A stretch of 64,000 nt of DNA, taken from the NCBI GenBank assembly GCA_965116925.1, contig OZ220744.1, positions 3,584,001-3,648,000 of the forward strand. Direction: 5' to 3'. The position numbers and the translations under genes are program-made. The stretch is from Candidatus Poribacteria bacterium. Its GTDB lineage: Bacteria > Poribacteria > WGA-4E > PCPOR2b. Of this stretch, positions 5,848 through 34,959 are shown piece after piece. The notes under the pieces were generated by a model. The model saw only the letters and a program-made list of their open reading frames with translations, made no database searches and was not told where the DNA came from. Numbering within the stretch: position 1 is the first letter of the stretch; every line of letters begins with the position of its first letter.

Positions 5848-5878
5848 AGAACCCTCCAATTGATGGTTGATACACGAC

Positions 5879-18403: not shown

Positions 18404-19972
18404 ATGAACTCGCCGAAAAAAATTGGGATTATTGACCTTACCACCAATAGTAGGACCCGATCCATATACAAGCATATTCTCCACAGCAATTACGCAAGCG
18501 TTATGCCTCAAGCGATAGGTGTTTGGTGTGAAGAGGCCGGGCATGATGTTACACTCGTGTGCTACACCGGTTTTGGGAATGTGATTGAAGATTTGCCCGA
18601 CAATCTAGACGTAGCCTTCATTGGGACTTTCACGCAGGGCGCGCAACTTGCTTATGCGTTAAGCAACCGGCTTCGCTCAGAAGGCACTATCACCGTATTA
18701 GGCGGTCCCCACGCCCGTTGCTATCCAGAAGATGCACAGCAATACTTCGATTACGTTCTCGGCTTTACTGACAAGTCTGCGATTCAAGGGATCTTATCCG
18801 ATTGTTCACAATACCGGCCGATTGGGACATATATTTCAGCGAAACAACAACCAACGGCACTTCCTAGCGTCCGGGAACGTTGGCATTTTATTGAACCGAT
18901 ATTGCAAAAGGCACCATTGATAAAGGGGGTTCCAATGCTTGGGAGCATGGGCTGTCCGTACACCTGTGCTTTCTGCATTGACGCAACTATCCCCTATCGT
19001 CCTTTCGATTTTGATATCATCAAGGATGATCTCCGTTTTCTCTTGGATCAGTTCACACGACCTTTGGTTGGCTGGCATGACCCGAATTTTGGGATTCGAT
19101 TTGACGACTACATGGGGACAATTGAGGAAGCGATACCGCCGGACAGCATCACTTTTGTTGCCGAAAGCAGTCTATCGCTCTTGTCAGAACCTCATCTCAA
19201 ACGGCTCCAGCGAAACGGATTTAAGGCAATCCTACCCGGTATCGAGTCGTGGTATGACCTCGGCAATAAATCGAAGACAGGTTCGAGAGTCGGTCTCGAA
19301 AAAGTCCAGAAAATCTCTGACCAAGTCAATACCATCCTGAAGTATATCCCTTATGTACAAACTAACTTTGTATTTGGGCTTGACACCGATGAAGGTGCTG
19401 ACCCATTTGAACTGACCAAACAATTTGTGGATATGACACCCGGTGCGTATCCGTCCTATAATTTGCTGACTGCTTATGGAAGAGCCGCACCGCTCAATCT
19501 CGATTATCAACGCGCAAACCGCGTTATTCCGTTGCCATTTCACTTCCTGAACAACGATATGATGAACGTCAAACCAAACAATTACTCATGGACTGAATTC
19601 TACGAACACATGGTTGATTTAGGTAACCATACATTTTCGTGGAAAGCCATCGCCAATCGTTGCAAAGCAAATGATGAACCGCTTGCAGGAGGACTGACTG
19701 TGCCACGAGGTATGTCCACAAAACGCCATAAAATTGGGCGATACGCACAAGTGCTTCAACGGCTTGAGAGTGATTCCAAGTTCCGGGCTTATTTTGAACA
19801 GGAAACAACTGAGCTACCACAGTTTTATATCGATTGGATTCAAAAAGACCTCGGTCCCCTGTGGGAGTGGCTGCCAGATGGGGCACTGTATTACGATCCG
19901 AATGCCTACCTCAAATCGGAGCAAGCGAATGACACCGAAATTGTCAACTTAAAAGAGTTGGACCGTGAATAA
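18404..19972 (+). CDS. Cobalamin-binding radical SAM protein
   Basis: TVLGGPHA B12-domain motif; SMGCPYTCAFC; NFVFGLD. Confidence 0.9.
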   Translation: MNSPKKIGIIDLTTNSRTRSIYKHILHSNYASVMPQAIGVWCEEAGHDVTLVCYTGFGNVIEDLPDNLDVAFIGTFTQGAQLAYALSNRLRSEGTITVLGGPHARCYPEDAQQYFDYVLGFTDKSAIQGILSDCSQYRPIGTYISAKQQPTALPSVRERWHFIEPILQKAPLIKGVPMLGSMGCPYTCAFCIDATIPYRPFDFDIIKDDLRFLLDQFTRPLVGWHDPNFGIRFDDYMGTIEEAIPPDSITFVAESSLSLLSEPHLKRLQRNGFKAILPGIESWYDLGNKSKTGSRVGLEKVQKISDQVNTILKYIPYVQTNFVFGLDTDEGADPFELTKQFVDMTPGAYPSYNLLTAYGRAAPLNLDYQRANRVIPLPFHFLNNDMMNVKPNNYSWTEFYEHMVDLGNHTFSWKAIANRCKANDEPLAGGLTVPRGMSTKRHKIGRYAQVLQRLESDSKFRAYFEQETTELPQFYIDWIQKDLGPLWEWLPDGALYYDPNAYLKSEQANDTEIVNLKELDRE

Positions 19973-20370: not shown

Positions 20371-21381
20371 ATGCTTCTTGGTGAAAGTCCTGCCATGCAA
20401 ATCATTCATACAACCATCGACCAACTCAGCAACCACAGCAAGATACCAGTTCTGATTACAGGTGAAACCGGTGTCGGTAAAGGATTGGTCGCCCAAGCTA
20501 TTCATTTTGGAGGGCCCCGGGCGTCAAAACCTTATGTGCCGGTCAACTGCGGTGCAACTCCCCTTACACTCTGGGAATCCAATTTTTTTGGCCATGTTCA
20601 AGGTGCTTTCACCGGAGCAGATGCAGATCATAAAGGCTATTTTGAAACAGCCGATGGCGGAACGCTATTTCTCGACGAAATTGGGGAAATGCCTATCGAA
20701 AGCCAAGTCAAACTCCTTCGCGTTCTGGACGATAATGTCATCACGCCGGTCGGTGCAACGGTGGGCAAAACGGCGGATATCCGGGTGATAGCAGCCACCA
20801 ACGCGGACCTCCAAGCGAAGGTGGAGGCAGGGCTATTTCGGTCAGATCTCTACAACCGCTTGGATGGCATGGAGATTTGGATCCCACCGTTACGTGAGCG
20901 AACAGAGGATATCCCCTCCATTGCCGAGTTCTACTTGAGTCAGTTTACAAGTCAAATGAGAGTGTCAACTCCATCATTGACACCTGAAGCCTCGGCGGCT
21001 TTGGAGACATACCCCTTCCCGGGTAACGTGCGTGAACTGATACACATCATCGAACGTGCCGTGATTGAAAGCAACGGTGAAGATATTCAACCCCAATACC
21101 TGCATTTTCGGTCTTCTCACGTTGGCACCCCTTCCTCTCTAGTAACAGAGAATGATGAAGCCAGTCCGTTGAATACCACTAATTCTGCACCCCACCCGGA
21201 CGATGAGGCAGAAATGAGTGATGACACCCTCTTACCGTTGGAAGAGGCGTTGGCGCGTTATGAAGGACAGTATCTCTGTCAAGCATTAGAGCAGACAGGT
21301 GGAAATAGGACAGAAGCAGCGCGCCTCCTAAATATATCCCGCCGAACTTTTCAGCGCAAATTAGCCAAGTACAATCTGTAA
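20371..21381 (+). CDS. Sigma-54-dependent Fis-family activator lacking an N-terminal regulatory domain
   Basis: GETGVGKG Walker A, GAFTGA, LFLDEIGEM Walker B, FPGNVREL, C-terminal HTH GNRTEAARLLNISRRT. Confidence 0.95.
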   Translation: MLLGESPAMQIIHTTIDQLSNHSKIPVLITGETGVGKGLVAQAIHFGGPRASKPYVPVNCGATPLTLWESNFFGHVQGAFTGADADHKGYFETADGGTLFLDEIGEMPIESQVKLLRVLDDNVITPVGATVGKTADIRVIAATNADLQAKVEAGLFRSDLYNRLDGMEIWIPPLRERTEDIPSIAEFYLSQFTSQMRVSTPSLTPEASAALETYPFPGNVRELIHIIERAVIESNGEDIQPQYLHFRSSHVGTPSSLVTENDEASPLNTTNSAPHPDDEAEMSDDTLLPLEEALARYEGQYLCQALEQTGGNRTEAARLLNISRRTFQRKLAKYNL

Positions 21382-21390
21382 GCGAAGGTT

Positions 21391-21448
21391 GTGCCATATT
21401 TGACGCAACACGTGCCATCAGTGGCACAACTTGTGCCATCAATGGCAC
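21391..21448. promoter_or_regulatory. Three phased palindromic upstream activator sites, GTGCCA-N4-TGGCAC
   Basis: Sites start at 21391 (imperfect), 21412 and 21433, exactly 21 bp apart. Confidence 0.75.
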
Positions 21449-21594: not shown

Positions 21595-21610
21595 TGGCAC
21601 AAGAATTGCT
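21595..21610 (+). promoter_or_regulatory. Sigma-54 (-24/-12) promoter
   Basis: TGGCACAAGAATTGCT fits TGGCAC-N5-TTGC(T/A) exactly; lies downstream of the activator gene and activator sites. Confidence 0.85.
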
Positions 21611-21803
21611 CGTTTATGCGTAGACGGTCTTGGGCGATAAACAGACCGCAGGCTAAATCGCTCGAACTAAAAATGACTAAACCTTTGGGCGATTTACTGA
21701 TATTATTTGTTGTGAGATAGACAAAGCATTTTTTCGTTTCTTGTCAATAAACTTGTCATCAGTCGTTAGAACTCGGAGATTCGCATCGAAGGGGGCTATT
21801 CTG

Positions 21804-23843
21804 ATGAACCGTAGCGTTTCGTATCTATTATGTCAAATCGGTTTCCTCGTTATACTTGGATATTCGTTGCCTTGTACGCAAGCCATCGCAGATTCCTCAT
21901 CTACACTGACGCTGATCTATTCTGGTGAGGAACGAGGATTGCTTAGGCTACACGGCTGCGGTGCTGAACAGGTTGGCGGATTAGCCCGCCGCCATACGGT
22001 AATTAAGTCACTCCGTGAGGAACATCCACATGCCCTAAATCTGCACACAGGTAACATTCTCAATTCCACCAACCCCAACAATGAACTCATATACCAGATT
22101 GCCCTCGAAGCGTTGAGTGGGATGGATTACAATGCGCTCTGTCTTGGTCCTCAGGATCTGTCCCTCTCGACAGACACGCTCTCTGCACTCTACGGGAATC
22201 ATCCCGACCTACCTGTTATCTGCACCAATCTCTCCATTTCCTCTCCGAATCCATTTGCACCTTATATCATTCACAATACAACCGCACAGATAAAAGTCGC
22301 TGTCATTAACTTAATATCCCAGTCATACCAAGCGGAAATTACCGCCTATAACCCCAGTATTACTCTATCCGATCCGACAGAAGCACTGGAGGCTTTGTCA
22401 AAAGAAATCATAGGAAAGAGCGACGTGGTCATGGGGGTGTTTCACGGAGGGGAAGATGAGGCGCATATACTCGCTGAAAAAGCCTCATGGCTGTCTGTTC
22501 TAATCCATGCTCAGGATGAATCCTCGGAAGTCGCCTTGGATAGTCCGATTGTGGTGGGAAATACGACGATTGTCACTAACCCTGCTAAAGGTGAAGCGGT
22601 TGGTGTTTTGGAGATTGGAATTGCCTCCGATCTGCAAGTGATTTCAAGACAGAATCAGCACCTCTCGGTCTCAGAACGGGTTACACCCAACGCCGACCTT
22701 GAAATGCTCTTGGCATTCTACGATGATTTGACCGAGGATAGCGGATTTGACCATCAAGAGAGCTCACCGGATGATCGTGCCATCTATATCACCTACTTCC
22801 ACAAACGCGGGTGTCAAAAATGTGCGAGGGCCAGTACGATTCTGAAAGAACTGAAAACCAAATATCCGCAGATTGTCGTTGAATTGAAGTATGCCAAAGA
22901 GAGCCGAGAACTGCTTGAAGCGATGGGGGCTCTCTACGAGGTTCCCGAAGTGAAACGGCTCACCACACCTGCGGTGTTCATCGGCGATGAGTATCTGTTA
23001 GACGAACTTGATGAAAAACGTTTGGAAACGGTTATCCAGAAATACTTGCAGACAGGGGTTGCGTCTCGTCTGCCCCAAGCGGAAGCCAAGGCTGGGGAAG
23101 CTTCAGACGGAATCGTCCAACGCTTTAACGCCTTCGGCACGTTGGCTGTCGCAGGCGCGGGGTTGCTTGATGGGATCAATCCGTGTGCCTTTGCCACTAT
23201 CGTGTTCTTCATCTCCTACATGAGCCTTGTTGGGAGAGGAAGGAAAGAGATGCTCGTCGCTGGAGGTGCATTCGCCGCAGCCGTGTTTGTGACGTACCTG
23301 CTGTTAGGGCTGGGACTGCTCAAATTCCTCTCCTTCCTCAACGAGTTTTCGCTGGTTGCCAAGTGCGTCTATCTACTTGCCGCGATTGGGACGTTTGCAT
23401 TGGCGTTTTTGAGCCTGTACGATGCCTATAAAGCAAAACAGGGGAAGGTTAAAGAGATTACATTGCAGTTGCCCAAGTCGTTGAAGCAGCGGATTCACAA
23501 GGTTATCCGTGAGCAGACGCGGACATCAGGGGTGATCATCGGTGCGTTGGTCATGGGGTTCGCAATCTCTGCGCTGGAGTTGGTCTGTACAGGTCAGGTT
23601 TATTTGCCGACAATTACGTTTGTCATGGGTGTCGAGGGGATGCGGGGCCATGCCTTAGCGTACCTGATTCTGTATAATCTGATGTTCATCGTGCCACTAT
23701 TGGTGGTGTTCGGGTTTGTGTATTGGGGAACGACTTCAATGCAACTCGGTGGTGTGCTGCAACGGCATCTGATGCCGGTGAAGTTGGGAACAGGAGTGCT
23801 GTTGTTTGGATTGGGAACTTGGTTGTTCTTGAACATTCTTTGA
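21804..23843 (+). CDS. Fusion of an exported UshA/5'-nucleotidase-like domain, a thioredoxin-like CxxC domain and a CcdA/DsbD membrane domain
   Basis: HGCG...GGLARR, MDYNALCLGPQD; CQKC...TPAVFIG; DGINPCAF...ELVCTGQVY with about 6 TM helices. Confidence 0.85.
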   Translation: MNRSVSYLLCQIGFLVILGYSLPCTQAIADSSSTLTLIYSGEERGLLRLHGCGAEQVGGLARRHTVIKSLREEHPHALNLHTGNILNSTNPNNELIYQIALEALSGMDYNALCLGPQDLSLSTDTLSALYGNHPDLPVICTNLSISSPNPFAPYIIHNTTAQIKVAVINLISQSYQAEITAYNPSITLSDPTEALEALSKEIIGKSDVVMGVFHGGEDEAHILAEKASWLSVLIHAQDESSEVALDSPIVVGNTTIVTNPAKGEAVGVLEIGIASDLQVISRQNQHLSVSERVTPNADLEMLLAFYDDLTEDSGFDHQESSPDDRAIYITYFHKRGCQKCARASTILKELKTKYPQIVVELKYAKESRELLEAMGALYEVPEVKRLTTPAVFIGDEYLLDELDEKRLETVIQKYLQTGVASRLPQAEAKAGEASDGIVQRFNAFGTLAVAGAGLLDGINPCAFATIVFFISYMSLVGRGRKEMLVAGGAFAAAVFVTYLLLGLGLLKFLSFLNEFSLVAKCVYLLAAIGTFALAFLSLYDAYKAKQGKVKEITLQLPKSLKQRIHKVIREQTRTSGVIIGALVMGFAISALELVCTGQVYLPTITFVMGVEGMRGHALAYLILYNLMFIVPLLVVFGFVYWGTTSMQLGGVLQRHLMPVKLGTGVLLFGLGTWLFLNIL

Positions 23844-23928: not shown

Positions 23929-24510
23929 ATGTTTAATTTCGGTTTTAATCGAGGGTTAGCGAGTGTGTGCTTTGTTGTAACTATCGTTTGTATTTTACTG
24001 GTTATCATTGGGGTTCACCCGATTGGCAGCCAAAACGCTCAGACTCAAGGCAGTGCTGGTGAATCTAATGTTCCCTCTCGTGTGAAGGAAATGCTGGAAA
24101 AGGAGAGCGTAGCAATAGCGAATCCGAAAGATGGTGAAGGGCTTCCCAGCGAACGGTTACCACAACTCCAAGAGATGCGAGATAAGAGGGAAATGGAAGG
24201 GAAACCATCAGCAGCGAATTTTTATCGTGTCATTGTTACCAATAATCTGTTCCGTCCACTTGGGCATAGAAAACCGAAGCAAGGTCCCTCGTTTCAATTG
24301 ATCGCTACCGTCATTGACAGCGAGAATGGAAAAAGTAGGGCACTTGTCCAAAACAGTAAAGATCGAAAAATTCACTATGTCACAGTTGGGGAAGCGTTCG
24401 CCGGTGCTAAAGTTAAACAGATAGAACCGAACCGCATAACACTGTTGCTAGAGGGAGAATCAAAGGAGTTTCATCTTCCACAAGGAGCTTTATTGGGCCC
24501 AATGTACTGA
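23929..24510 (+). CDS. GspC/PilP-like membrane-anchored protein
   Basis: N-terminal TM; NNLFRP...FQLIATV...ALV...VTVGEAFAGAKVKQIEPNRITL. Confidence 0.7.
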   Translation: MFNFGFNRGLASVCFVVTIVCILLVIIGVHPIGSQNAQTQGSAGESNVPSRVKEMLEKESVAIANPKDGEGLPSERLPQLQEMRDKREMEGKPSAANFYRVIVTNNLFRPLGHRKPKQGPSFQLIATVIDSENGKSRALVQNSKDRKIHYVTVGEAFAGAKVKQIEPNRITLLLEGESKEFHLPQGALLGPMY

Positions 24511-24639
24511 AATCAATGAAACAAGCAGAATGCTACACCAGCATCAGGCGTAGTGAAGTTGGTTATGGCAGTCCTGTTGCCGGGATTGGGAATCTGGTTG
24601 CTGTTAGGTGTGACACGAAAATTTTGTAAGGAGATAATC

Positions 24640-25362
24640 ATGAACTGGTCGAAAAGATTTTTAATTTTCAGTTTGTTTGTTTTGGGAATCTCAGTAATTT
24701 ACTTTGTTGTAACCTCGTATCGGTTGCCTCACCTTGTTGAGCAGGAAGTAGGGTTAGCACCGCATGAGGAAGAGGGGATTGAGATGTCTTACATTCACAA
24801 TCGGCATGTCTTTTCAGCGAAAACTGATCAATCAAATGAAGAAAGTTTTGCGGTTGAAAATGAGGACGATTCCAAAACAGCCAGCGATGGATCCGTGGAT
24901 TCGATGCTAGACGAATTAGCTGACGATTTTGAGTTAGAACCAGTGAGCGAGAATCTCGCCGATGCGTTGTCCCCTGAAATCAAACTCAAAGCAGAGCGTT
25001 ATGCGAAGTTGGCAGAGATGCTCCCCGTTATCGAAGAATTAAGAGATCGAAAATTTAAACTCACCAAACAATATGAAAAATATATCGAAGAACACTACCG
25101 GAGACTCCGCCTTCAGGGGGGACCGTATCCAGAACCTGATCCAGCTGTTGAAGAAGAGTATCAAGCTGCAGTGAAAGTCATCGATAAAGAGGTATCTGAT
25201 TACAATAGGCAGATAGATAATATGTTCCCGGAACTCGACATCACTTATGAGGAACTAGGGATAGATTATATATTTGTTTTCCGTAAAGATCAGGTACTCC
25301 GGGAGTATTTCGGCAAAAAATTACCGTTTGATGGGAATTCGGATTACTTTTCGGCTGACTAA
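24640..25362 (+). CDS. Hypothetical membrane-anchored acidic protein
   Basis: RBS AAGGAG before ATG 24640; N-terminal hydrophobic helix. Confidence 0.7.
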   Translation: MNWSKRFLIFSLFVLGISVIYFVVTSYRLPHLVEQEVGLAPHEEEGIEMSYIHNRHVFSAKTDQSNEESFAVENEDDSKTASDGSVDSMLDELADDFELEPVSENLADALSPEIKLKAERYAKLAEMLPVIEELRDRKFKLTKQYEKYIEEHYRRLRLQGGPYPEPDPAVEEEYQAAVKVIDKEVSDYNRQIDNMFPELDITYEELGIDYIFVFRKDQVLREYFGKKLPFDGNSDYFSAD

Positions 25363-25405
25363 ACTCGTGGAAATAAGCCATTAGCCGCATACAATGGAGG
25401 TCTCA

Positions 25406-26638
25406 ATGAAAAACATACCGCGTACAACCGAGACTTCACAATCTCGGCAAAAGCCAATCCGAAACCACCACCTTCGGCTTTACATTATTTTATCCCTTGT
25501 GGTGCATCTGTTAGCTGTTATCACGTTTCTTGCGCTGAAAAAGCCTGTCGTCGAACAGGTGGAGGGAGGTTTCACTGTTACCCTTTCAACAATCAAACAA
25601 CCCGCGTTGAAACGCACATCAATCTCACACAAACCTCTCGGCCCGATTCACTCCCAAAAAACGTTAGCAGATGCTGGGTTTCAGAGAACACCTTCCCAAT
25701 TACATCAGGATTCTGGGCAACCTGCGATTCATTCCGTTTCTTTATCCCTTCAGTCCTTCTCTGATGATTCCCCGCCGATGGTAAGTATGGAAAACGCTGA
25801 AGGCTTTGGAGGCACGGTTGGTAACACCGCCGAAGGAGGATTAGAGGCCAGCAACGGCAGAGGTATTGGAGCTCCTTCCGTATCAAGCGAAGAAACAATG
25901 GACACGGAAAACACCTTGTCCAATTACACCGGGGGACTTCAATCTCCGATGGATAAGGAGAAATCAACGCGAGTGGTTACCCGTGTTGACTCGATTGATT
26001 CGGATCGGATTCAATCCCCAACATTAACGCGTAACCGTTCAAATCAGGTTGATGTTGTATTTATCATCTCCTGTAGAGAGGAAATGCGCCCCTACATCAA
26101 CGACGTAGTAGCATTTGTTAAGCGTAAGATTCAGCGATACAGGGCATCAGCCAAAGATTACCGGATAGGTATCATCACCTCTGACATTGAAGCTTGTGAG
26201 GGACCTCAATCCATCAGATACTTTCCGTTGAGCGACCATTTTGATAAAGCCCTTGAAGTGCTAGACCGTGTCCAACTTCGACCATTCTATATGGATATTC
26301 AACTGAATGCGATTCAGTACGCACTTGAACGGTGTGCGTTTCGTCCAGATGCCCAGCGTCAGCTCGTCGTCTTTGGTAATGATATTCCGATATGCGGTGG
26401 ATATTCCCCTCTATCCGTTATTGAACGGTGCCGTGAGCTTGGGGTTGTTCTCAATATTCATGGCGCGGATGCAGAGGTGGGCCCTCTTTTGGCATCGCAG
26501 ACGGGAGGCAAATGGGTTCAGGCTTTTGAGAATCCACACGACATGACACAGCTAGAACCGCCAAACTGGACCCCCTATTGGAAACTCCAAATCACCCTCA
26601 ACGATGTGATTGAACAGCGGATCTATGTGCCAGAATAA
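25406..26638 (+). CDS. TonB-like anchor (SLVVH), low-complexity linker and vWA domain, copy 1
   Basis: ILSLVVHLL; VDVVFIISCREEM...FRPDAQRQLVVFGND...LASQTGG; RBS GGAGG. Confidence 0.8.
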   Translation: MKNIPRTTETSQSRQKPIRNHHLRLYIILSLVVHLLAVITFLALKKPVVEQVEGGFTVTLSTIKQPALKRTSISHKPLGPIHSQKTLADAGFQRTPSQLHQDSGQPAIHSVSLSLQSFSDDSPPMVSMENAEGFGGTVGNTAEGGLEASNGRGIGAPSVSSEETMDTENTLSNYTGGLQSPMDKEKSTRVVTRVDSIDSDRIQSPTLTRNRSNQVDVVFIISCREEMRPYINDVVAFVKRKIQRYRASAKDYRIGIITSDIEACEGPQSIRYFPLSDHFDKALEVLDRVQLRPFYMDIQLNAIQYALERCAFRPDAQRQLVVFGNDIPICGGYSPLSVIERCRELGVVLNIHGADAEVGPLLASQTGGKWVQAFENPHDMTQLEPPNWTPYWKLQITLNDVIEQRIYVPE

Positions 26639-26655
26639 GCAAGGAGGCAAGTCCA

Positions 26656-27936
26656 ATGAAATGCAATTTTTCCCCGTTTTTAATGTTTTTCCTTGTGTTC
26701 GTCGGTTGTAGTCCATCTATGCTTAAGGTTGAACGAGCGATTGCGCCGGGGACTTTGACTGTGATTCAACTCTCGGATAACGGCTCTATAGAACAAACTC
26801 TTGACCAACTATCACTGACCGAGACGGTGGCGGGACCTTCTGACATCGTTGTTCGGGACGGGCGTGCTTATATCGCTACTTATAAACAGTTCTTGATAGC
26901 GGAAAGTAACGTTAATGGCAAGCTGCGCCTACTGTCTTCGCTCCCACTCCCCGGTTACGATACCGCCCTTGCCTTGCATTCAACAGCTACAATCGCCTAC
27001 GTCACCAATACAGAAGGCTTACTGGTCCTAGATGTCAGTGACCCAACCCAACCGAAACAGATCGCACATTTAAAGCTAGCTGCCGAACTGGCAAAACTCA
27101 ATCTTCCAAACCTGCTCAAAGGTCCGACTGGAACCGATATCGGGTGTGAGGACAATAAACTGGTCTTGACGTTGCAGGGGGAAGGTGAAAGTCTAAACAC
27201 AGCCCTTACCATTATTCCAAGCCGTCCAGGCATCGCTGTAGTGTTCGACGTAGAAAAACCACACTCACCCCGGATTGAACGGGTATTGGGCCCTTTACCC
27301 GGTGCAGCCGCCGTAGAGATGGGGCTTTACTGTTATCAAGTCTTTGTTGTTGGGGAGGAACTAGTAGAATACCGAAACCTTACGCGAGTCCCGGGGCCCG
27401 GGGGCGGAATCTGGATTAAATCTGACAAATATGTCGGAGGAACAGGTATCCCAGGCGATGTTGTTGAGATGAAATTTGTGATGGGCTCACGCGACGATTG
27501 GGAAGCGGGGAAAGCAGCGGATACCATCAAGCAGTATCGCCTCGCCAATCCTCAAGAACGCCGTAAACTTGAGGCACTCACATCGTTGGATCAGGGAGTT
27601 GTCTTTATAGCTACAGAACATGCCGTGGTCTCAATGAGCACAAGACATAAGGGACTTACATGGAGACTTAGGAATAACCGTACAGCTTCTGATCGCTTTG
27701 CTCACCTCCACGGGATAGATGCCTATGGATATTTCGCGGTGTACATAGCAGCAGGGACAGAAGGTGTCTATGCCTTGAAATGGGATGGAGAGGTCGAATT
27801 TAGGAAGCGGAATCATCTCAAAACCCTACGGGCTCCTACCTTGGACGTTGCGGTTTCAGGGGACAAGCTCTATGTGTTGTGTGGTGAACCGAATCTAAGA
27901 AATGTGCAACATAATGAGGACTTAATCTCGAATTAG
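26656..27936 (+). CDS. LVIVD-repeat/beta-propeller lipoprotein, copy 1
   Basis: Lipobox FVGC; DIVVRDGRAYIA, GLLVLDVSDPTQP, DVAVSGDKLYV. Confidence 0.8.
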   Translation: MKCNFSPFLMFFLVFVGCSPSMLKVERAIAPGTLTVIQLSDNGSIEQTLDQLSLTETVAGPSDIVVRDGRAYIATYKQFLIAESNVNGKLRLLSSLPLPGYDTALALHSTATIAYVTNTEGLLVLDVSDPTQPKQIAHLKLAAELAKLNLPNLLKGPTGTDIGCEDNKLVLTLQGEGESLNTALTIIPSRPGIAVVFDVEKPHSPRIERVLGPLPGAAAVEMGLYCYQVFVVGEELVEYRNLTRVPGPGGGIWIKSDKYVGGTGIPGDVVEMKFVMGSRDDWEAGKAADTIKQYRLANPQERRKLEALTSLDQGVVFIATEHAVVSMSTRHKGLTWRLRNNRTASDRFAHLHGIDAYGYFAVYIAAGTEGVYALKWDGEVEFRKRNHLKTLRAPTLDVAVSGDKLYVLCGEPNLRNVQHNEDLISN

Positions 27937-28077
27937 GGAGAGGTGTTTGGTCAATCACTAGGCCTCCATTCACACCAATCTGAATGAAGGCCGAACGATT
28001 TCGACATTGCTTGAAGCGGATTATCAATTTGGACCACCCGTTTCAAGCGAAATTCCTATTGAAAGGGGGTGAGAAAA

Positions 28078-28491
28078 ATGAGAAGCATGATGCTTGCCGG
28101 GATTATCCTTGTGGCTCTCGTCGTGGTGGCTGTCAACCTACTAGCCGATCCACAAACGTTGAATGCGAGTCAGATGCAGACAATGTACGGTGGAATATGC
28201 TATAGCAAATCGGAAGTCTTTACCGAGGGTTGTGCGCCTACATGGACCTGTTCTTCCAGTAAAAAGACAGGGAAAACCGATCACACGAATTTGGGGACTC
28301 AGAAGATCAATTACACGACGAGTGGATATAGTTCCTATGAATCTCGTACCAAAGATCACACGTGCAAGGTAACCTCGTTCGATGATTGGAGCAACTCCAA
28401 GCCAACGTGTTCACAAAGGAAGAGACCGTCTACTTATTGGAGGGGCCCGAAGTATACGATGCGCGGCAGTGGTTGTAATGACTATAATTAA
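28078..28491 (+). CDS. Secreted Cys-rich protein with a Sec signal followed by a double-glycine leader
   Basis: Hydrophobic signal at aa 1-23, then QTLNASQMQTMYGG|IC; 6 Cys in a 98-aa Ser/Thr/Lys-rich mature part; RBS AAAGGGGGTG. Confidence 0.8.
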   Translation: MRSMMLAGIILVALVVVAVNLLADPQTLNASQMQTMYGGICYSKSEVFTEGCAPTWTCSSSKKTGKTDHTNLGTQKINYTTSGYSSYESRTKDHTCKVTSFDDWSNSKPTCSQRKRPSTYWRGPKYTMRGSGCNDYN

Positions 28492-28500
28492 AGAATCGGT

Positions 28501-28532
28501 GAGAGGACACTGTTATTTTGTAGTGTCCTTTC
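28501..28532 (+). terminator. Stem-loop right after the GG-leader gene (terminator or mRNA-stabilising hairpin)
   Basis: GAGAGGACACT...AGTGTCCTTTC. Confidence 0.5.
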
Positions 28533-28702
28533 ATATCTGTTTCGCTAGAGTTACTACAGTTTAGCGAAGAACAGACAGCGAGGAACAGCGTACGAGAATT
28601 GGATGTCGACGACTGGTTCTCATTTACTCTCAAGTTTCTGTAGTGGCGAGGTGCACCCTCGCCACTATACCAGTTTACAGTACGTTAAAAGGAATTAAGA
28701 AG

Positions 28703-29611
28703 ATGTTAATAATAAGCAGACGACAATGGTTGACGGCATTTCTGCTTCTGGGAACCGTATTTATATTTCAACGGGATGTCTCTGCTAATACAGAGGGCCT
28801 CGCCGTTGTGCTCGAAGGGGTCAAGTACCACGACCAGCTTATAAAGTCATGCCGTGTCTCTTTTATGAGTCAAGCATTTACCAGCAAGGAGGCTAATATC
28901 GCGGGTACAGAGAGCATAAATCAAGCAGCTGGAGGCGAATGCTTCTTCGCTGATGGGATGCTTGCTTTGATTCAGATTACTCCACACACCCAGTTTGATC
29001 CCAAGATGACACTCAAGCAGATCTATGACAAAGAACGAATTATGGAGGTTTATATTCACGAACCCCAAGATGAAGCGGCTTGGCACAAAGTGTTCTATTA
29101 TCCTGAGCACAGATTTGACCAAGTAGTTGACCAATACTACTCTCCCCTGTTTTGGACGGAGGTAGAAGGGTTGCCACTTGATGAGATTGTTAGTCTTTAT
29201 GTCAAAGCACCCGATGACAGCGTTCAGTCAAGAGGTTATGAGATGATACAGGAGGAACAGTGTTTTCGCGTCTCCCTGATTGGACCTTTATCTGATATAG
29301 ATGTGGTTGTCAATCTTGATAGAGGTTATCGCATACAAGAGATTCATATAACGTACAAAAGTGCTACAACTATAGAAAACCACACCCTCATAAAGGTGCA
29401 AAAGGTTGAGTGGGAACACTATAAAGACGACATCTGGTATCCAACTTCTACGTATAGCGAAACCTATGATCTCCACAACCAGACAGAGGTAAAGCAGACC
29501 CGTTTTCGAGAACAGATACAGTTCAAGGACTTTGAAGCCAATATCAAAATTCCAGAGGATGTGTTTCTCACGGAGCCGCCTCCCGGAGCAGAGTCAGTAC
29601 ACTATTTTTAA
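28703..29611 (+). CDS. Exported LolA-like (lipoprotein-sorting fold) protein
   Basis: Signal peptide; beta-rich; IWYP...IQFKDFEANIKIPEDVF...PPGA C-terminus typical of LolA-like proteins. Confidence 0.6.
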   Translation: MLIISRRQWLTAFLLLGTVFIFQRDVSANTEGLAVVLEGVKYHDQLIKSCRVSFMSQAFTSKEANIAGTESINQAAGGECFFADGMLALIQITPHTQFDPKMTLKQIYDKERIMEVYIHEPQDEAAWHKVFYYPEHRFDQVVDQYYSPLFWTEVEGLPLDEIVSLYVKAPDDSVQSRGYEMIQEEQCFRVSLIGPLSDIDVVVNLDRGYRIQEIHITYKSATTIENHTLIKVQKVEWEHYKDDIWYPTSTYSETYDLHNQTEVKQTRFREQIQFKDFEANIKIPEDVFLTEPPPGAESVHYF

Positions 29612-29630
29612 CTGTAAGGAGGTTTGACCT

Positions 29631-31070
29631 ATGGCAGCGAAAAATTTGGGAGTGGCTGTTTTTGTCAGTACTTTTCTGATATGTATTATGCTACAGGGAC
29701 AGGATCTTTTTGCCCAACAACCCACCGTGGAAGAACTTCCACAACAAGACGCTGACGATATCTTATGCGGCCCTCGGGCGTTACTCATTTTATGCCGAAT
29801 GTATGGTATTGACGCAGAATTAGAGGAGTTGGCGCAACTGGCGAAGGTAAATGAGCAAGGCACAAACATGTTTAACCTGCTGAAAGCCGCTCAAGCGAAA
29901 GGGTTTTCAGCAGTAGGACGGATTCTCAAGTACACCGAGTTACTCGCGCTTAAGAAGCCGGTTATCGCCTTTGTCAACAACAACCATTTCTCTGTGTTGG
30001 AAGCAATAGACAAGCACACTGCGAGAATATCGGATGAAATGACTAACCCTCTGGTCATATCAAGGGAAGAGGTATCCGAGATGTGGCAAGGGCACTGTCT
30101 CGTCGTATCGAAATCTCAACCTATTAAAAAGAACGCCGTGCCTAACATCGTATTTGACAAAATTGTATACGATTTCGGTACGATGCCTCGTGGGAGTTCC
30201 CTTGAGTATAGTTTCGCTGTAAGCAACAAAGGGAACGTGCCGTTGAAAATTTTTCAGGTTATGGGGGCATGTGATTGCACCGTGAGTGCTCCGGGCAAAA
30301 AGGTTCTCCAACCGGAAGAGGTAACCTCCATCCATGTCAAGGCGAATCTTCGAGAAAAAGGGCGTATTAATCGGTCTTTCGTCGTGATTTCAAACGACCC
30401 CTATACGAAGGCGTATCCACTTACTATCACAGGTAACGTGGTGGATGCGTTGGAGGTCACACCGAGTAATATTTTCTTACGGCGTATTGGTGTGAAAGAT
30501 TCTGTTCATCGTACCATCAAGTTTAAAGCACCTAAGAACAAACCGCTTAAAATCGAACGAATTACAGTCCCAGATGGGGTCAAAATCCAAGAATTTCCTG
30601 GGGCTACTCCTGATAGCGTAATACTTGAAGCAACCGTTGGTCCCAATTTGCCCCCGGGTCAGTTTTCGGAGCGTATAGAGATTGAATTGAACAACGTCTA
30701 TGCCACAGAAGGGGCGGCTGCTTCTCCAATTACCATTGAAATCCCTATAGAGGGTATCGTTGAGGGGGATCTGTCCGTCTTTCCTGAACGTTTCTTCTTG
30801 GGATTCATACCATCCGGCGAAGAAAAGTCTTGTACAGTCGAACTAAAGAACTCAGAGGAGATACCAATTCAATTCTCCCGAGCACAGGTGAAAGGTGATT
30901 CCGTCAAGGTGATTGTAGAGCCGACAAAGCCGGGATATACGTATAAGATAACAGCAACAGCACAGGCAGATGTACCCCAAGGCCAATTGAGAGATACCGT
31001 TCGTATCTACATTGAGGAACAAGGGACAGAAAAAGTAGTGGAAATTCCACTCTTCGGAGTTGTACAATGA
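29631..31070 (+). CDS. Exported C39-family cysteine peptidase fused to DUF1573/Ig-like domains (no ABC transporter)
   Basis: Signal peptide; LCGPRAL (Cys), GTNMFNLLKAAQAKGF, PVIAFVNNNHFSV (His), ISD (Asp); YDFG...VSNKGNVPLKI...ACDCT plus two further Ig-like repeats. Confidence 0.85.
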   Translation: MAAKNLGVAVFVSTFLICIMLQGQDLFAQQPTVEELPQQDADDILCGPRALLILCRMYGIDAELEELAQLAKVNEQGTNMFNLLKAAQAKGFSAVGRILKYTELLALKKPVIAFVNNNHFSVLEAIDKHTARISDEMTNPLVISREEVSEMWQGHCLVVSKSQPIKKNAVPNIVFDKIVYDFGTMPRGSSLEYSFAVSNKGNVPLKIFQVMGACDCTVSAPGKKVLQPEEVTSIHVKANLREKGRINRSFVVISNDPYTKAYPLTITGNVVDALEVTPSNIFLRRIGVKDSVHRTIKFKAPKNKPLKIERITVPDGVKIQEFPGATPDSVILEATVGPNLPPGQFSERIEIELNNVYATEGAAASPITIEIPIEGIVEGDLSVFPERFFLGFIPSGEEKSCTVELKNSEEIPIQFSRAQVKGDSVKVIVEPTKPGYTYKITATAQADVPQGQLRDTVRIYIEEQGTEKVVEIPLFGVVQ

Positions 31071-32392
31071 GAAGGCTATGGGGTTGGTTTCTGATGGTCG
31101 TGGGTATATTTCTCTTTTTTGTCTTCTTGTGGGCAAGGGGCGGGATTGCGAAACCTCAGGTGGACAATCTGCCTGAGAAATTAAGGCTACATATTGCTTA
31201 TATGGCAGGGCATGAGGGTTATATTTTTCCAAAACCGCTTAACGATTTAGGGGGATTGATGCGTTGTGCAAGCATATTGGGTAAACTCCGAATGGTTCAT
31301 GGGGCGCTGCTGCTTGCCAATGGAAACCAGACGGATCGGATAGACGGCATGGCGAGTACCCTTCACGCTTGCTTTCTGAACGCATTGAGGTTTGACGCTA
31401 TAAACGTCGGCCCAGGCACCCTCAAGGTTAAGGCTTACGCCCAAGTTCCTTTGGCAGATACTTTATCTTTTCTCAGCAGTAATCTGCTTCATCAAGGAGA
31501 ACCGGCTTTCCTAACAAAGCGCATCCGGGAAGTTACGTTAGGTGATCGTGTGCTGAAGATTGCGATTGTTGGCGTAACAGCAGCAGCATTCGAGCCTGTT
31601 GCCAAGTCTTATTCTCCTGATATAGTGGTTGTTGATGTTGAGCGTTCATTGACCCAAACACTCAGCGAATTACCATCGGATATATCGTTGACAGTTTTAC
31701 TGGCACACGTCACCGATGAAAATATGGCGTTTCAACTCGCTGAGCAGATAGATGGCATTGATCTGATACTATTTGAAGCCCCCGGTGTCAGTCCCATGTC
31801 AGAGCCCCGAACAGTGAATCACACGCTTATCGCCAACGCTGGACCTAGTGTTTCCCACATACGCCATCTCCGCCTTACTCTTAATCCTGATGAAAGGGGT
31901 ATCCAGAGTTTTGCAAGCACTTTGATTCCTCTATCGGTGAACATACCAGATGCCCCCGCTTTTTTTGAACTCATCGAAGGGTATAGGGAAGTATTTATGT
32001 CGGAGGAAAGTGAGCTGGATAAAAAGAAAAAACATTTGATAGATGCGCATCCCAATACATATGTTGGGAGTGAAGTGTGTGCCCGCTGCCATGCGTATGC
32101 CTATCATGTCTGGAAGCGTACCAAACATGCAACTCCCTTTGAAGCGGAAGGGAGGGGTTGTCTCGATTGTCATGGCACAGGATACGGTTTTGAAGTAGAA
32201 ATGGTAGCAGAGAAGGATATATCAGACAACGTTGGTTGTGAAGCGTGTCACGGTCCAGGAAAACAGCACAGTATGCAACCGGAGGCAGCGGTTTATAAGC
32301 CGCTGCCGGTTACCGTCTGTGATTCGTGCCATACACATTCACAGAGTCCAGACTTCAGTTACTCAACTTACTGGGAGCGGATAAACCATTAG
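31067..32392 (+). CDS. UshA/5'-nucleotidase-like domain fused to a tetraheme cytochrome c (c554-like)
   Basis: GGLMR...FDAINVG...FLSSNL; four CxxCH motifs: CARCH, CLDCH, CEACH, CDSCH. Confidence 0.85.
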   Translation: MRRLWGWFLMVVGIFLFFVFLWARGGIAKPQVDNLPEKLRLHIAYMAGHEGYIFPKPLNDLGGLMRCASILGKLRMVHGALLLANGNQTDRIDGMASTLHACFLNALRFDAINVGPGTLKVKAYAQVPLADTLSFLSSNLLHQGEPAFLTKRIREVTLGDRVLKIAIVGVTAAAFEPVAKSYSPDIVVVDVERSLTQTLSELPSDISLTVLLAHVTDENMAFQLAEQIDGIDLILFEAPGVSPMSEPRTVNHTLIANAGPSVSHIRHLRLTLNPDERGIQSFASTLIPLSVNIPDAPAFFELIEGYREVFMSEESELDKKKKHLIDAHPNTYVGSEVCARCHAYAYHVWKRTKHATPFEAEGRGCLDCHGTGYGFEVEMVAEKDISDNVGCEACHGPGKQHSMQPEAAVYKPLPVTVCDSCHTHSQSPDFSYSTYWERINH

Positions 32393-32413
32393 CCGCATAC
32401 AATGGAGGTCTCA

Positions 32414-33649
32414 ATGAAAAACATACCCTGTACGAGCAGGACTTCACCATATCGGCAAAAGCCAATCCGAAACCACCACTTTCTGTTTTGCGTTATTTTG
32501 TCCCTCGTGGTGCATCTGTTAGTTGTTATGGTGTTTTTCGCGCTGAGAAAGCCCGCTGCCATTCAGGTAGAGGAAGCGTTCACTGTCACCCTTTCCTCCA
32601 TCAAACAACCCGCGTTGAAACGCGAATCAGTATCACACAAACCTCTTAGCTCGATTCGCTCTCCAAAAGTGTTAGCAGATGTTGGGTCTCAGAGAATACC
32701 TCCCCGATTGCGTCAGGATTCTGGACAGCCTGCGATTCGCTCTACCCCTTTACCCTTTCAGTCTTCCTCCGATAACTCCCTACTGACGGCAAGCATGACA
32801 AACGCTGAAGGCTTCGGAGGGATGGGTGGTAATGCCGCCGAAGGAGGATCAGGGGAGGACACCAGCACAAGCATTGAAATTCCCTTTGTATCGGGTGGAG
32901 CAGCAATCAATTCTAAAAATACCCTTTCCAATCATACTGGTGCCCTTCAATCTCCGGCGGATAAGGAGAAATCGACGCGATCGATTGCCCTTGCTGACTC
33001 GATTGATTCAAATCGGATTCAACAGCCAAGGTTGGCACGTAACCGTTCAAATCAGGTTGATGTTGTATTTATCATCTCTTGTAGAGAGGAAATGCGCCCC
33101 TACATCAACGATGTTGTTGCATTTGTCAAGCGTGAGATTCAGCAATACCAAGCTTCAACCAAAGATTACCGGGTGGGTATTATCACATCCGACATTGAAT
33201 TCGTTGATGGTCCTCAATATATCAGATACTTTCCGTTGAACGATCATCTCAATAAAGCCATTCAGGTCATAAACAACATTCCGCTTCAGCCATTCCGCAC
33301 CGATATTCAACTGAATGCAATTCAGTACGCACTTAAGCGGTGTGTGTTTCGTCCAGATGCCCAGCGTCGACTTATCGTCTTTGGTAACGATATTCCGATA
33401 TGCGGCGGCTATTCTCCTCTATCCGTTATTGAGTGGTGCCGTGCACTTGGGGTTGTTCTCGATATCCACGGTGCGGATACAGAGGTAGCCCCCCTTCTAG
33501 CATCGCGGACGGGAGGAAAATGGGTTCATGCTTTTGAGAACCAATATGACATGGAAACACTCAAGGAGCCAACTTGGGGAAACGCCTATTGGAAACTCCA
33601 AATTACCTTGAACGATGTGGTTGAACAGCGGATTCATGTACCAGAATAA
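32414..33649 (+). CDS. TonB-like anchor plus vWA domain protein, copy 2
   Basis: Close paralog of 25406-26638. Confidence 0.8.
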   Translation: MKNIPCTSRTSPYRQKPIRNHHFLFCVILSLVVHLLVVMVFFALRKPAAIQVEEAFTVTLSSIKQPALKRESVSHKPLSSIRSPKVLADVGSQRIPPRLRQDSGQPAIRSTPLPFQSSSDNSLLTASMTNAEGFGGMGGNAAEGGSGEDTSTSIEIPFVSGGAAINSKNTLSNHTGALQSPADKEKSTRSIALADSIDSNRIQQPRLARNRSNQVDVVFIISCREEMRPYINDVVAFVKREIQQYQASTKDYRVGIITSDIEFVDGPQYIRYFPLNDHLNKAIQVINNIPLQPFRTDIQLNAIQYALKRCVFRPDAQRRLIVFGNDIPICGGYSPLSVIEWCRALGVVLDIHGADTEVAPLLASRTGGKWVHAFENQYDMETLKEPTWGNAYWKLQITLNDVVEQRIHVPE

Positions 33650-33666
33650 GCAAGGAGGCAAGTCCA

Positions 33667-34959
33667 ATGAAATGCAAATCTTCCCCGTTTTTAATGTTTT
33701 TCCTTGTGTTCATCGGTTGTAGTCCGTCTATGCTTAAGGTTGAACGCGCGATTGCGCCGGGGACTTTGACCGTGATTCAGCTGTCCGACAACGGTGCTAT
33801 AGAACAGACCCTTGACCAGTTGCCACTTAATGAAACGATTGCGGGACCTTCTGACATCGTTGTTCGAGACGGGCGCGTCTATATTGCCAGTTACAAACAG
33901 TTATCAATAGCAGAAAGCGGGGATAACGGCAAGCTGCGTCTGCTATCCTCGCTTCCACTTCCCGGTTACAATGCAGCCCTTGCCCTCCATTCAACCGCTG
34001 CGATCGCCTACATCACTAATACAGAAGGCTTACTGGTCATGGATGTCGGTGACCCAACCCGGCCGACACTAGTCACACATCTGAGGTTGGCAGACGAACT
34101 AGCTAAACTCAACCTTCCAAACCCACTCAAAGACCCGGTTGGAACCGATATCGGATGTGAGGACAATAAACTGGTCTTGACATTGCAAGGGGAGAGTGAT
34201 AGCCTAAGTACACTCCGTGCTAGTATTCCAAGCCGTGCGGGTATCACTGTGGTCTTCAACGTGGGAAAACCCCACTCACCCCAGATTGAACGAATTTTGG
34301 ATCCCTTACCCGGTGCAGCTGCTGTAGCAATGGGGCTTTACCGTTATCAGACCTTCGTTGCCGGTGATGAGATGGTAGAGTATCAAGACTTTAAGCGAGA
34401 ACCAACCCCTGGGACGGGTCTCTGGTTCAAGACCGTCGAGCATCCCGGCGGACAGCGAACCACGGGGGATATTCCGGGGAATGTTGTTGAGATGAAATTT
34501 GTGATGGGTTCTCGCGAAGATTGGGAAGCCGGGAGGACAACTGATATTGCCAAGCAGTATCGGAGTGCTAACCCTCAAGAACGCCGTGAACTTGAGGTGC
34601 TTACACCGTTGGATCAGGGTGTTGTCTTTATAGCTACAGAACATGCCGTGGTTTCAATGCCCACATCACTGAAGTGGCTGATATGGAGACTCGATAATAA
34701 CCGGACAGCTTCCGATCGCTTTGCTCACCTCTATGGGATAGATGCCTATGGATATTTCGCCGTGTACGTGGCAGCGGGAACCGAAGGCGTCCATGTATTG
34801 AAATGGGACGGCACAATCGAATTTAGGAAGCGGGATCATCTCAAAACCCTTCCGGCTCCCGCCTTGGACGTTGCAGTTTCGGGGGATAAGCTCTATGTGT
34901 TATGCGGCGAACTAGGCCTACGGAATGTGCAACACAATGAGGACTTAATCGCGAATTAG
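33667..34959 (+). CDS. LVIVD-repeat/beta-propeller lipoprotein, copy 2
   Basis: Close paralog of 26656-27936; lipobox FIGC. Confidence 0.8.
   Translation: MKCKSSPFLMFFLVFIGCSPSMLKVERAIAPGTLTVIQLSDNGAIEQTLDQLPLNETIAGPSDIVVRDGRVYIASYKQLSIAESGDNGKLRLLSSLPLPGYNAALALHSTAAIAYITNTEGLLVMDVGDPTRPTLVTHLRLADELAKLNLPNPLKDPVGTDIGCEDNKLVLTLQGESDSLSTLRASIPSRAGITVVFNVGKPHSPQIERILDPLPGAAAVAMGLYRYQTFVAGDEMVEYQDFKREPTPGTGLWFKTVEHPGGQRTTGDIPGNVVEMKFVMGSREDWEAGRTTDIAKQYRSANPQERRELEVLTPLDQGVVFIATEHAVVSMPTSLKWLIWRLDNNRTASDRFAHLYGIDAYGYFAVYVAAGTEGVHVLKWDGTIEFRKRDHLKTLPAPALDVAVSGDKLYVLCGELGLRNVQHNEDLIAN

Follow-up and report, generated by a model that had tools for sequence, protein, structure and literature searches.

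A predicted double-glycine-type propeptide behind a Sec-type signal in a six-cysteine protein of Candidatus Poribacteria, encoded two genes upstream of an exported C39-DUF1573 peptidase

C39 peptidases and double-glycine (GG) leaders belong to the textbook picture of how bacteriocins and pheromones are exported from the cytoplasm, and the known GG peptidases are N-terminal cytoplasmic domains of ATP-binding cassette (ABC) transporters; to our knowledge, this tag system is not known to work outside the cytoplasm. A small gene of a Candidatus Poribacteria bacterium raises the question of whether it may do so. The gene lies in a stretch of 64,000 nucleotides (nt) that was analysed as a whole and is called the window from here on (assembly GCA_965116925.1, contig OZ220744.1, positions 3,584,001 to 3,648,000, forward strand; all coordinates below are those of the window unless stated otherwise), and it encodes a protein of 137 residues in which a hydrophobic N-terminus is followed by a GG-type motif and then by a part with six Cys. 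Two genes downstream stands the gene of a C39 peptidase with an export signal of its own and DUF1573 domains. From these data we infer, as the probable course of events, that the small protein is exported by the Sec route and that its GG propeptide is then removed in the periplasm. The parts of the gene are the following:

28078–28491 (stop codon included), + strand: gene for the 137-residue pre-pro-protein, with 13 homologues at 61–91% identity plus more distant ones.
28065–28069, + strand: Shine-Dalgarno-like GGGGG run, 8 nt ahead of ATG 28078, from sequence inspection.
28078–28146, + strand: N-terminal hydrophobic export signal MRSMMLAGIILVALVVVAVNLLA, amino acids (aa) 1–23, a Sec signal or a signal anchor, from inspection.
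28147–28194, + strand: putative double-glycine-type propeptide DPQTLNASQMQTMYGG, aa 24–39, from conservation, a predicted helix and a modelled interface with the C39 domain.
28195–28488, + strand: predicted mature protein of 98 residues, basic, beta-rich and with six Cys, aa 40–137, from composition and structure prediction with AlphaFold 2 (AF2).
28499–28534, + strand: stem-loop directly downstream of the gene, a hairpin of terminator-like or stabilising type, from folding.

Regarding the start of the gene, ATG 28078 agreed with the homologue alignment, in which the related proteins begin with the same Met (MRS...). R2 is followed by a hydrophobic stretch of about 18 residues that ends in NLLA, and inspection of the sequence placed a putative signal-peptidase site at A23|D24, with Ala at −1 and Leu at −3. 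In the propeptide, L28 corresponds to position −12, Q32 to −8, M33 to −7, M36 to −4 and G38-G39 to −2/−1 relative to the predicted cut. The predicted mature part had a pI (isoelectric point) of 9.2, with 15 Lys and Arg versus 8 Asp and Glu, and 30 of its 98 residues were Ser or Thr; its six Cys were found at positions 41, 52, 58, 96, 111 and 133. The 3′ hairpin had a minimum free energy of −22.5 kcal/mol and a z of −3.84, and an equally good fold occurred in none of 200 shuffles. The preliminary description of this DNA, made from the sequence alone, was accurate on these points: the open reading frame (ORF) has the coordinates it gave, the strong ribosome-binding site is the GGGGG run, the leader residues stand exactly where it had put them, the composition agrees with the basic, Ser/Thr-rich mature part of 98 residues and six Cys, and the hairpin is real. 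Neither Pfam nor NCBIfam had a family that matched the 137-aa protein, and NCBIfam, applied to 11 small proteins, gave no significant match, lactococcin 972 being below the threshold.

As for transcription, a simple sigma-70 scan of the + strand between 27937 and 28077 gave no promoter-like site. In a sponge metatranscriptome (one run, Logan contigs), 100% identity was found to 27792–27941 and to 28272–28496, with the remainder of 27000–31100 uncovered; the second piece spans the small gene's 3′ half and stops 3 nt ahead of the hairpin. Because such contigs tell nothing of level, strand or ends, and because an RNA library can hold DNA, these two pieces demonstrate neither expression nor a coverage step at 28.5 kb.

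The motif proved to be a property of the family. A word-based search returned the 13 close homologues, all of which keep the hydrophobic N-terminus and the motif, while the 12 full-length ones keep the six Cys as well; a profile search over 1.84 billion representatives gave 13 proteins at E ≤ 0.001, 7 of which were additional full-length relatives with 22–48% identity. In an alignment of 21 sequences, M1, L28, M33, G38, G39, C41, C52, C58, G83, C96 and C133 were invariant, D29 and C111 were nearly so, and position −4 was M, L or I; the leader residues L28, M33, G38 and G39 were kept in 21/21 homologues, down to 22% identity. This conservation is meaningful because the homologues had been recovered with hidden Markov model or profile searches, and not by the motif. 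The preliminary description had held that its proposal would fall if GG and the hydrophobic residues at −12, −7 and −4 varied among homologues; what was found is a leader conserved in 21/21 and a core that varies. Scans of genome and metagenome contigs with the family alignment found no relative, and the ESM Atlas gave no usable match. On this evidence, the protein would belong to an unannotated family of disulfide-rich secreted proteins, with the pattern of a conserved signal and leader ahead of a variable core built on a Cys framework.

The same alignment bears on the fate of the N-terminus. If it were left uncut, it would hold the precursor in the membrane, and the C39 cleavage after G39, a step that this variant has in common with the two-step course proposed above, would be the sole processing event and would release the protein from its anchor. 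The length of the hydrophobic stretch and the Leu at −3 of the putative signal-peptidase site would suit such an anchor; the leader begins 4 residues past the hydrophobic stretch, so that the C39 enzyme would act near the membrane, and among the close homologues part of the segment shows strong conservation (G8 is invariant; I9, I10 and V19–L22 are nearly so). However, the residue before the propeptide is Ala in 16/21 family members, and many of the paralogues treated below have signals with AxA-like ends (A-I-A, A-T-A, V-T-A, S-Y-A), which fits a conserved signal-peptidase site; one-step release from an anchor is considered unlikely.

As for the structure, AF2 run with the 21 sequences gave a mean predicted local distance difference test (pLDDT) score of 74. 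Residues 41–130 were all beta, with block means of 74–95 (at least 84 in 8 of 9 blocks), and a helix was predicted at residues 30–37, unpacked against the confident core and lying in a region of low confidence. For the mature protein, Foldseek found no match in the PDB at E ≤ 1, and a sequence profile search of the PDB likewise returned 0 matches at E ≤ 1. With VIA-align, the best Z was 3.0, where a pilus-like filament and cystine-knot growth factors rank equally within the noise; the cystine-knot entries were 3mjk_A (Z 3.0, root-mean-square deviation (rmsd) 5.9, 74 residues aligned) and 5aej_A (Z 2.9, rmsd 6.3, 82 aligned), both within the noise of the method.

The candidate for the processing enzyme is the product of the second gene downstream:

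29631–31070, + strand: exported C39 peptidase of 479 aa (C39 domain at aa 43–162) followed by DUF1573/Ig-like domains, from Pfam; proposed processing enzyme.

Pfam Peptidase_C39 (PF03412) matched this protein with 80.9 bits against a cut-off of 22, and DUF1573 with 87.9 bits; the closest solved chains by sequence were the double-glycine peptidase domains of PCAT1, LahT150 and ComA, with E between 1.6e-7 and 2.8e-4. By its sequence, the enzyme belongs to family C39. When 23 C39-DUF1573 proteins were aligned, C46 and H119 were present in 23/23, the third position, D135, was D in 16, E in 5 and N in 2, and a hydrophobic N-terminal segment preceded the CGP active-site motif in 23/23. The DUF1573 domains matched Ig-like HYDIN/VesB models and carried an invariant CxC motif. 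Since the protein has a hydrophobic signal of its own (MAAKNLGVAVFVSTFLICIML...), it should face the periplasm, and both the enzyme and its candidate substrate are predicted to be located outside the cytoplasm.

A separate observation concerns the CxC motif. In loci of other Poribacteria (L056–L059, L061 and L062), an in-frame TGA aligns at the invariant C-x-C of DUF1573, which is the case for 6 of the 7 TGA paralogues that were fetched; the seventh, L060, gave no tblastn match. The position of TGA agrees with the NCBIfam match 'OS_HP2 family (seleno)protein' and suggests selenocysteine at a redox-active site. A Sec+GG gene was found near none of the seven fetched loci.

The fit between the two proteins was modelled with residues 30–175 of the C39 enzyme and residues 24–137 of the pro-protein, for which own alignments were supplied. 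The score was 0.73 for the complex and 0.00 for the highest-scoring of 3 controls; the mark used is reached by 116 of 157 solved complexes and by 2 of 215 mismatched pairs, counts that are rough with own alignments. The runs agreed in at least 62% of the contacts, and the pLDDT of the partner was at least 68. On the substrate side, the modelled interface consisted of residues 24–28, 30 and 33–42, that is of the leader and the first residues after it; on the side of the C39 domain, it comprised residues 43–47, 76–82, 84, 95–100, 103, 114, 117–120, 155 and 157, with the catalytic Cys46 and His119 included. In the model, G38-G39 and I40 sit at the catalytic residues.

The next question is whether such a motif goes with C39 genes elsewhere, first of all in the source genome of the window (G000; 6.47 Mb). 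In this genome, a PF03412 domain occurs exactly twice, each time in a C39-DUF1573 protein and never on an ABC transporter. The strict leader motif had 6 matches in its six-frame ORFs of at least 60 aa, and only two of these were behind an N-terminal hydrophobic segment, both beside the only C39 domains of the genome. In the same way, a hydrophobic N-terminus combined with a polar GG leader and at least 6 Cys was found in only two ORFs, each paired with one C39 gene at a distance of about 2.2 kb; the second ORF encodes a 146-aa paralogue with the leader LSNEVMEEISGG and 10 Cys, and lies about 38 kb upstream of the window gene. It is part of a paralogous cluster just upstream of the window (L055, G000:C1:3564884-3578182), whose genes encode, in order, an UshA/thioredoxin-fold membrane protein 94% identical to that of the window, a GspC-like protein, a relative of the 269-aa protein of the window, the small GG protein and a C39-DUF1573 peptidase with an extra N-terminal LolA_like domain (a 795-aa LolA_like-C39-DUF1573 fusion).

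The gene order was also kept in a genome of the same class and of another family (G005), in which the small gene, a homologue of the 322-aa gene that follows it, a C39-DUF1573 gene (57% identical) and the UshA-like cytochrome gene succeed one another. The small protein of G005 had 130 aa and was 36% identical, with the leader ...LDNQTMQRMIGG; here the leader was kept and the core had diverged. A search of 176 genomes of the phylum gave the small protein in G000 and G005 only, plus two weak matches that contain stops, and the sole full-length C39 match above 50% identity was in G005 as well. These pairings bear on the objection that the GG motif is a chance resemblance in an ordinary periplasmic protein and has nothing to do with the C39 gene. 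A loose form of the leader pattern is indeed common, with matches in 92 of 33,994 ORFs of G000, mostly within membrane segments; however, the motif is invariant across the 21 homologues, the only two strict cases behind a hydrophobic segment adjoin the only two C39 domains, and 15 further cases lie beside paralogous peptidases. A coincidence is therefore disfavoured and appears extremely improbable.

These further cases come from other Poribacteria, where C39-DUF1573 proteins are present in 79/176 genomes, often in several copies. A total of 36 loci was scanned, 12 of 24 later loci being omitted because they covered places already scanned, and 11 of the 36 carried the 15 small ORFs; these encode 129–148 aa with a hydrophobic N-terminus, a motif of the form LSxxEMxxLxG[GAS] and 6–12 Cys, and several stand in tandem. 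The leaders were of the types LSDSEMQELxGA, LTPVQMSEIWGG and LRDITMQGIYGA. An hhalign comparison of the proteins from these loci with the window family gave a probability of 97% and E 3.9e-11 over 103 columns, as for distant homologues, and the two groups have the Cys columns C52, C58, C96, C111 and C133 in common. A joint profile found 20 proteins in 5.8 billion, none with a name beyond 'hypothetical protein'; the one labelled organism was Candidatus Poribacteria. With 12 genes from the paralogous loci, which had been selected for G-[GAS], added to the 21 homologues, position −2 was G in 33/33 sequences and position −1 was G in 23, A in 7 and S in 3.

A leader that is so well conserved could also be one that is bound and left uncut, or that forms part of a mature protein starting at D24; aa 24–39 would then be a docking helix for the C39-DUF1573 protein, acting in a chaperone-like manner, or for another partner. 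The leader is the best-conserved part of the protein, which a docking motif would explain too, and non-catalytic, substrate-binding C39-like domains are described for some type 1 secretion transporters in the part of Rouse et al. consulted (2017, PMC5557850). On the other hand, the catalytic Cys and His are invariant in all 23 C39-DUF1573 proteins, with D, E or N as the third residue, the model places the glycine pair and I40 at these very residues, and the motif ends in G-[GAS] in 33/33 sequences, as cleavage sites do. Docking without cleavage is thus judged quite improbable, below the uncut anchor.

Several points weigh against removal of a GG propeptide in the periplasm. In 25 of the 36 loci, no recognisable Sec+GG gene was found within about 6 kb; scans with a relaxed motif gave no candidate in 12 of the first 20 loci, in 9 of the next 10 and in 4 of 6 further Poribacterial loci, nor in 6 non-Poribacterial loci with C39 only. 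It follows that the C39-DUF1573 family must act on other substrates or on unlinked ones, and the adjacency is not universal. The paralogue genes had been chosen with a regular expression that demands hydrophobic residues at −12, −7 and −4 and G-[GAS], so that their conservation at these positions is partly circular; the residues that the expression did not force were L at −12 in 33/33, M at −7 in 32/33 (the single exception being a mis-anchored sequence), S or D at −11 and E or Q at −8. The match to the classical consensus L-S-x-x-E-L-x-x-I-x-G-G, which the preliminary description had taken as given, is incomplete: it holds at −12, −7 and −4 and for the glycine pair, but position −8 is Q and not E in the window protein. 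Position −15 is Pro, not a hydrophobic residue, and Pro occupies it in 22/33 sequences. The long hydrophobic stretch with Leu at −3 may be an uncleaved anchor, the AF2 block means for residues 1–39 were 42–54, and the family is small and, from what was found, limited to Poribacteria. Finally, C39 domains have been solved in the entries 4ry2, 7n87, 6mpz and 3k8u, which we take to contain a leader substrate; since such complexes exist, the pass of the complex model may reflect memory, and it is a measure of likeness and not of binding.

With these points on both sides, the preferred course of Sec export and periplasmic propeptide removal would have three steps. The N-terminal hydrophobic segment would carry the precursor across the inner membrane by the Sec route, and signal peptidase would probably cut after A23. 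The 16-residue propeptide would then act as a double-glycine leader, a short helix that uses L(−12), M(−7) and M(−4) to dock into the C39 domain, and the C39-DUF1573 protein would cut after G39, as the conservation, the gene neighbourhood and the complex model suggest. In the last step, a basic, beta-rich protein of 98 aa starting with ICYSK would be released, and its six Cys would probably pair into three disulfides under the oxidising conditions of the periplasm. The core proposal of the preliminary description, a leader in two stages of which the second is removed outside the cytoplasm, is supported by the conserved GG, −12, −7 and −4 residues next to a varying core; it is strengthened by the signal-bearing C39-DUF1573 peptidase, the synteny with G005, the one-to-one pairing and the complex model.

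As for the role of the mature protein, a secreted effector (of the bacteriocin type or for host interaction) is preferred, followed by the subunit of a fibre and, last, by a redox or carrier protein. With their hypervariable, Cys-rich cores and tandem variants, the proteins would suit an effector role; no immunity gene or target was evident. In the second case, removal of the propeptide would license the polymerisation or export of a surface fibre, as proposed for Fap/Fil-type systems that have periplasmic C39 peptidases, which is compatible with the processing steps above. The mature part is predicted to be all beta, the DUF1573 domains of the peptidase match the Ig-like HYDIN/VesB models, and the pilus-like filament 9xfv_A was among the top structural matches, but with Z 3.0 and an rmsd of 8.1 over 78 residues. 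Among the 39 ORFs of the window that were scanned, no family match to an outer-membrane channel, an usher or a FapF-type protein was found; NCBIfam C39_FapD (NF058616) matched the peptidase with 17.5 bits (E 0.0019), below its cut-off of 330, and hypervariable cores in tandem variant copies suit effectors at least equally. A fibre subunit is accordingly rated as unlikely, about on a level with the uncut anchor.

The small gene stands within a cluster, of which the following features were recognised beside those listed above:

20371–21381: sigma-54 activator gene (AAA+, HTH_8, without a receiver domain), just upstream of the sigma-54 site.
21595–21609, + strand: exact consensus of a sigma-54 promoter, the sole match in the window with zero mismatches, about 130 nt upstream of the cluster's first gene.
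21741–23843, + strand: first gene of the cluster, for an unusual protein of 700 aa in which three parts are fused, namely an UshA-like metallophosphoesterase domain, a CxxC-bearing domain of the glutaredoxin/thioredoxin fold and a polytopic membrane domain; the paralogous cluster begins with a copy of 94% identity.
23929–24510, + strand: gene for a weakly GspC-like protein (GspC_delta 27.2 bits against a cut-off of 150; Pfam T2SSC, E 0.007), with a 76% identical copy in L055.
24553–25362, + strand: gene for a 269-aa membrane protein of no recognised family, with a homologous domain in G005 and in the paralogous cluster.
28643–29611, + strand: gene, read from GTG 28643, for a conserved, possibly LolA-like neighbour of 322 aa, with a homologue at the same position in G005.
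31067–32392, + strand: gene for an UshA-like protein that has a multihaem cytochrome c part at its C-terminus; it recurs beside C39-DUF1573 genes.

The sigma-54 promoter probably drives the cluster. About 170 nt upstream of it, a near-palindrome at 21422–21438 has the sigma-54 pattern with 1 mismatch on both strands and may be the site of the activator. For the polytopic membrane domain of the 700-aa protein, Pfam had no family; a CcdA/DsbD-like label, which its appearance had suggested, was dropped because Pfam gave no such match. In G005, the gene directly upstream of the small gene (L003:95-1489) encodes an extracytoplasmic function (ECF) sigma factor with regions 2 and 4, fused to a membrane segment and, at the C-terminus, to a domain that shares homology with the 269-aa protein; this hints at a sensing or regulatory role for that domain.

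A pair of genes, for a weakly VWA-like membrane protein and a lipoprotein with LVIVD repeats, is duplicated in the cluster (25394–27936 and 32402–34959); the proteins of the two copies have 70% and 78% identity, and the first copy ends just before the small gene. In the 322-aa neighbour, ATG 28703 is an alternative start that would give a signal-peptide-like N-terminus. The protein matched DUF2092 weakly (E 0.029), and its match to the LolA_like portion of the 795-aa fusion was likewise weak (E 0.029) but colinear, so that its LolA-like nature, for which these weak matches speak, is possible; its AF2 model had a mean pLDDT of 48, too poor for use in a structure search. Of 21 loci compared by tblastn (L007 and L036–L055), 14 had the UshA-like cytochrome gene. 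No ABC transporter was found among the 39 scanned ORFs of the window. With its thioredoxin-fold CxxC membrane protein, the CxC of DUF1573 and the UshA-like cytochrome c, the cluster might be conjectured to be a setting for extracytoplasmic maturation. Elsewhere in the window there are radical-SAM-type genes at 4501–5859 (− strand) and 18404–19972 (+ strand), the second with weak matches to B12-binding and radical SAM families, and a YhgA-like transposase gene at 105–1175; neither the transposase gene nor the radical-SAM genes had a visible tie to the small gene.

A broader reading, which is put forward tentatively and with less confidence than the processing steps themselves, is that a GG leader behind a Sec signal may be a second-stage tag for periplasmic maturation, used by a class of exported C39 peptidases that has expanded in Poribacteria. 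The invariant CxC, replaced by TGA in some paralogues, suggests that the C39-DUF1573 protein would both remove the propeptide and handle the disulfides of hypervariable, Cys-rich secreted proteins, maybe aimed at competitors or at the sponge host. If the pairing of enzyme and substrate at this locus holds, predictors of leaders and of secretion need to consider GG motifs behind Sec signals, the C39-DUF1573 architecture, widespread in Poribacteria, gains a function, and an uncultured phylum of sponge symbionts would have a new, unannotated family of disulfide-rich secreted proteins. The locus is a clean candidate for an enzyme-substrate pair, with a near-canonical motif in another compartment than that of the textbook systems.

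Compared with the known systems, the nearest in sequence are the PCAT/AMS exporters (PCAT1, LahT150 and ComA; 4ry2, 7n87, 6mpz and 3k8u). The window peptidase shares with them a C39 domain recognised by Pfam, the catalytic Cys and His included, and the leader has hydrophobic residues at −12, −7 and −4, G-[GAS] and a helical segment, the tag lying on the active site in the present model. Unlike these exporters, the window peptidase has its own export signal, a fusion to DUF1573 and no ABC transporter; the leader follows a Sec-type N-terminus of 23 residues instead of replacing it, and the cargo is a predicted disulfide-rich protein of 98 aa and not a short peptide. Lactococcin 972 (TIGR01653) resembles the small protein in being a small, beta-rich, Sec-exported secreted protein, but its match, at 13.5 bits, fell short of the cut-off of 32.1 and was not significant (E 0.063), and we know of no GG propeptide or C39 partner in that family.

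The classical GG leader is placed at the extreme N-terminus, where it replaces a Sec signal, according to the part of Rouse et al. used here (2017, PMC5557850). The tag of the window protein, as read here, would fail one defining feature of the GG class, since it does not replace a Sec signal and involves no ABC exporter. The closest precedent for the enzyme is FapD of the Pseudomonas Fap functional amyloid, a stand-alone C39 peptidase with a Sec signal, which is active in the periplasm and whose catalytic Cys the pathway requires; in the consulted part of the same paper, its target is unclear and the Fap proteins are without canonical C39 sequences (Rouse et al. 2017, PMC5557850), and the available portion of a 2026 bioRxiv preprint has FapD only 'involved in precursor processing', a cut site being named in neither. 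FapD and, by prediction, the window enzyme are alike as Sec-signal-bearing periplasmic C39 peptidases; in contrast to FapD, the window enzyme has DUF1573 and a candidate substrate with a near-canonical motif, and among the scanned ORFs of the window there was no FapF-type channel or amyloid-repeat protein. No paper that pairs C39 with DUF1573 was found in the literature searched, nor, by title or abstract and outside the subscription journals, any account of a GG leader placed after a Sec signal. A C39 enzyme in the periplasm, as exemplified by FapD, is the known part of the picture, and the new part, as predicted from this locus, would be a near-canonical GG motif behind a Sec signal, encoded beside an exported C39-DUF1573 peptidase.

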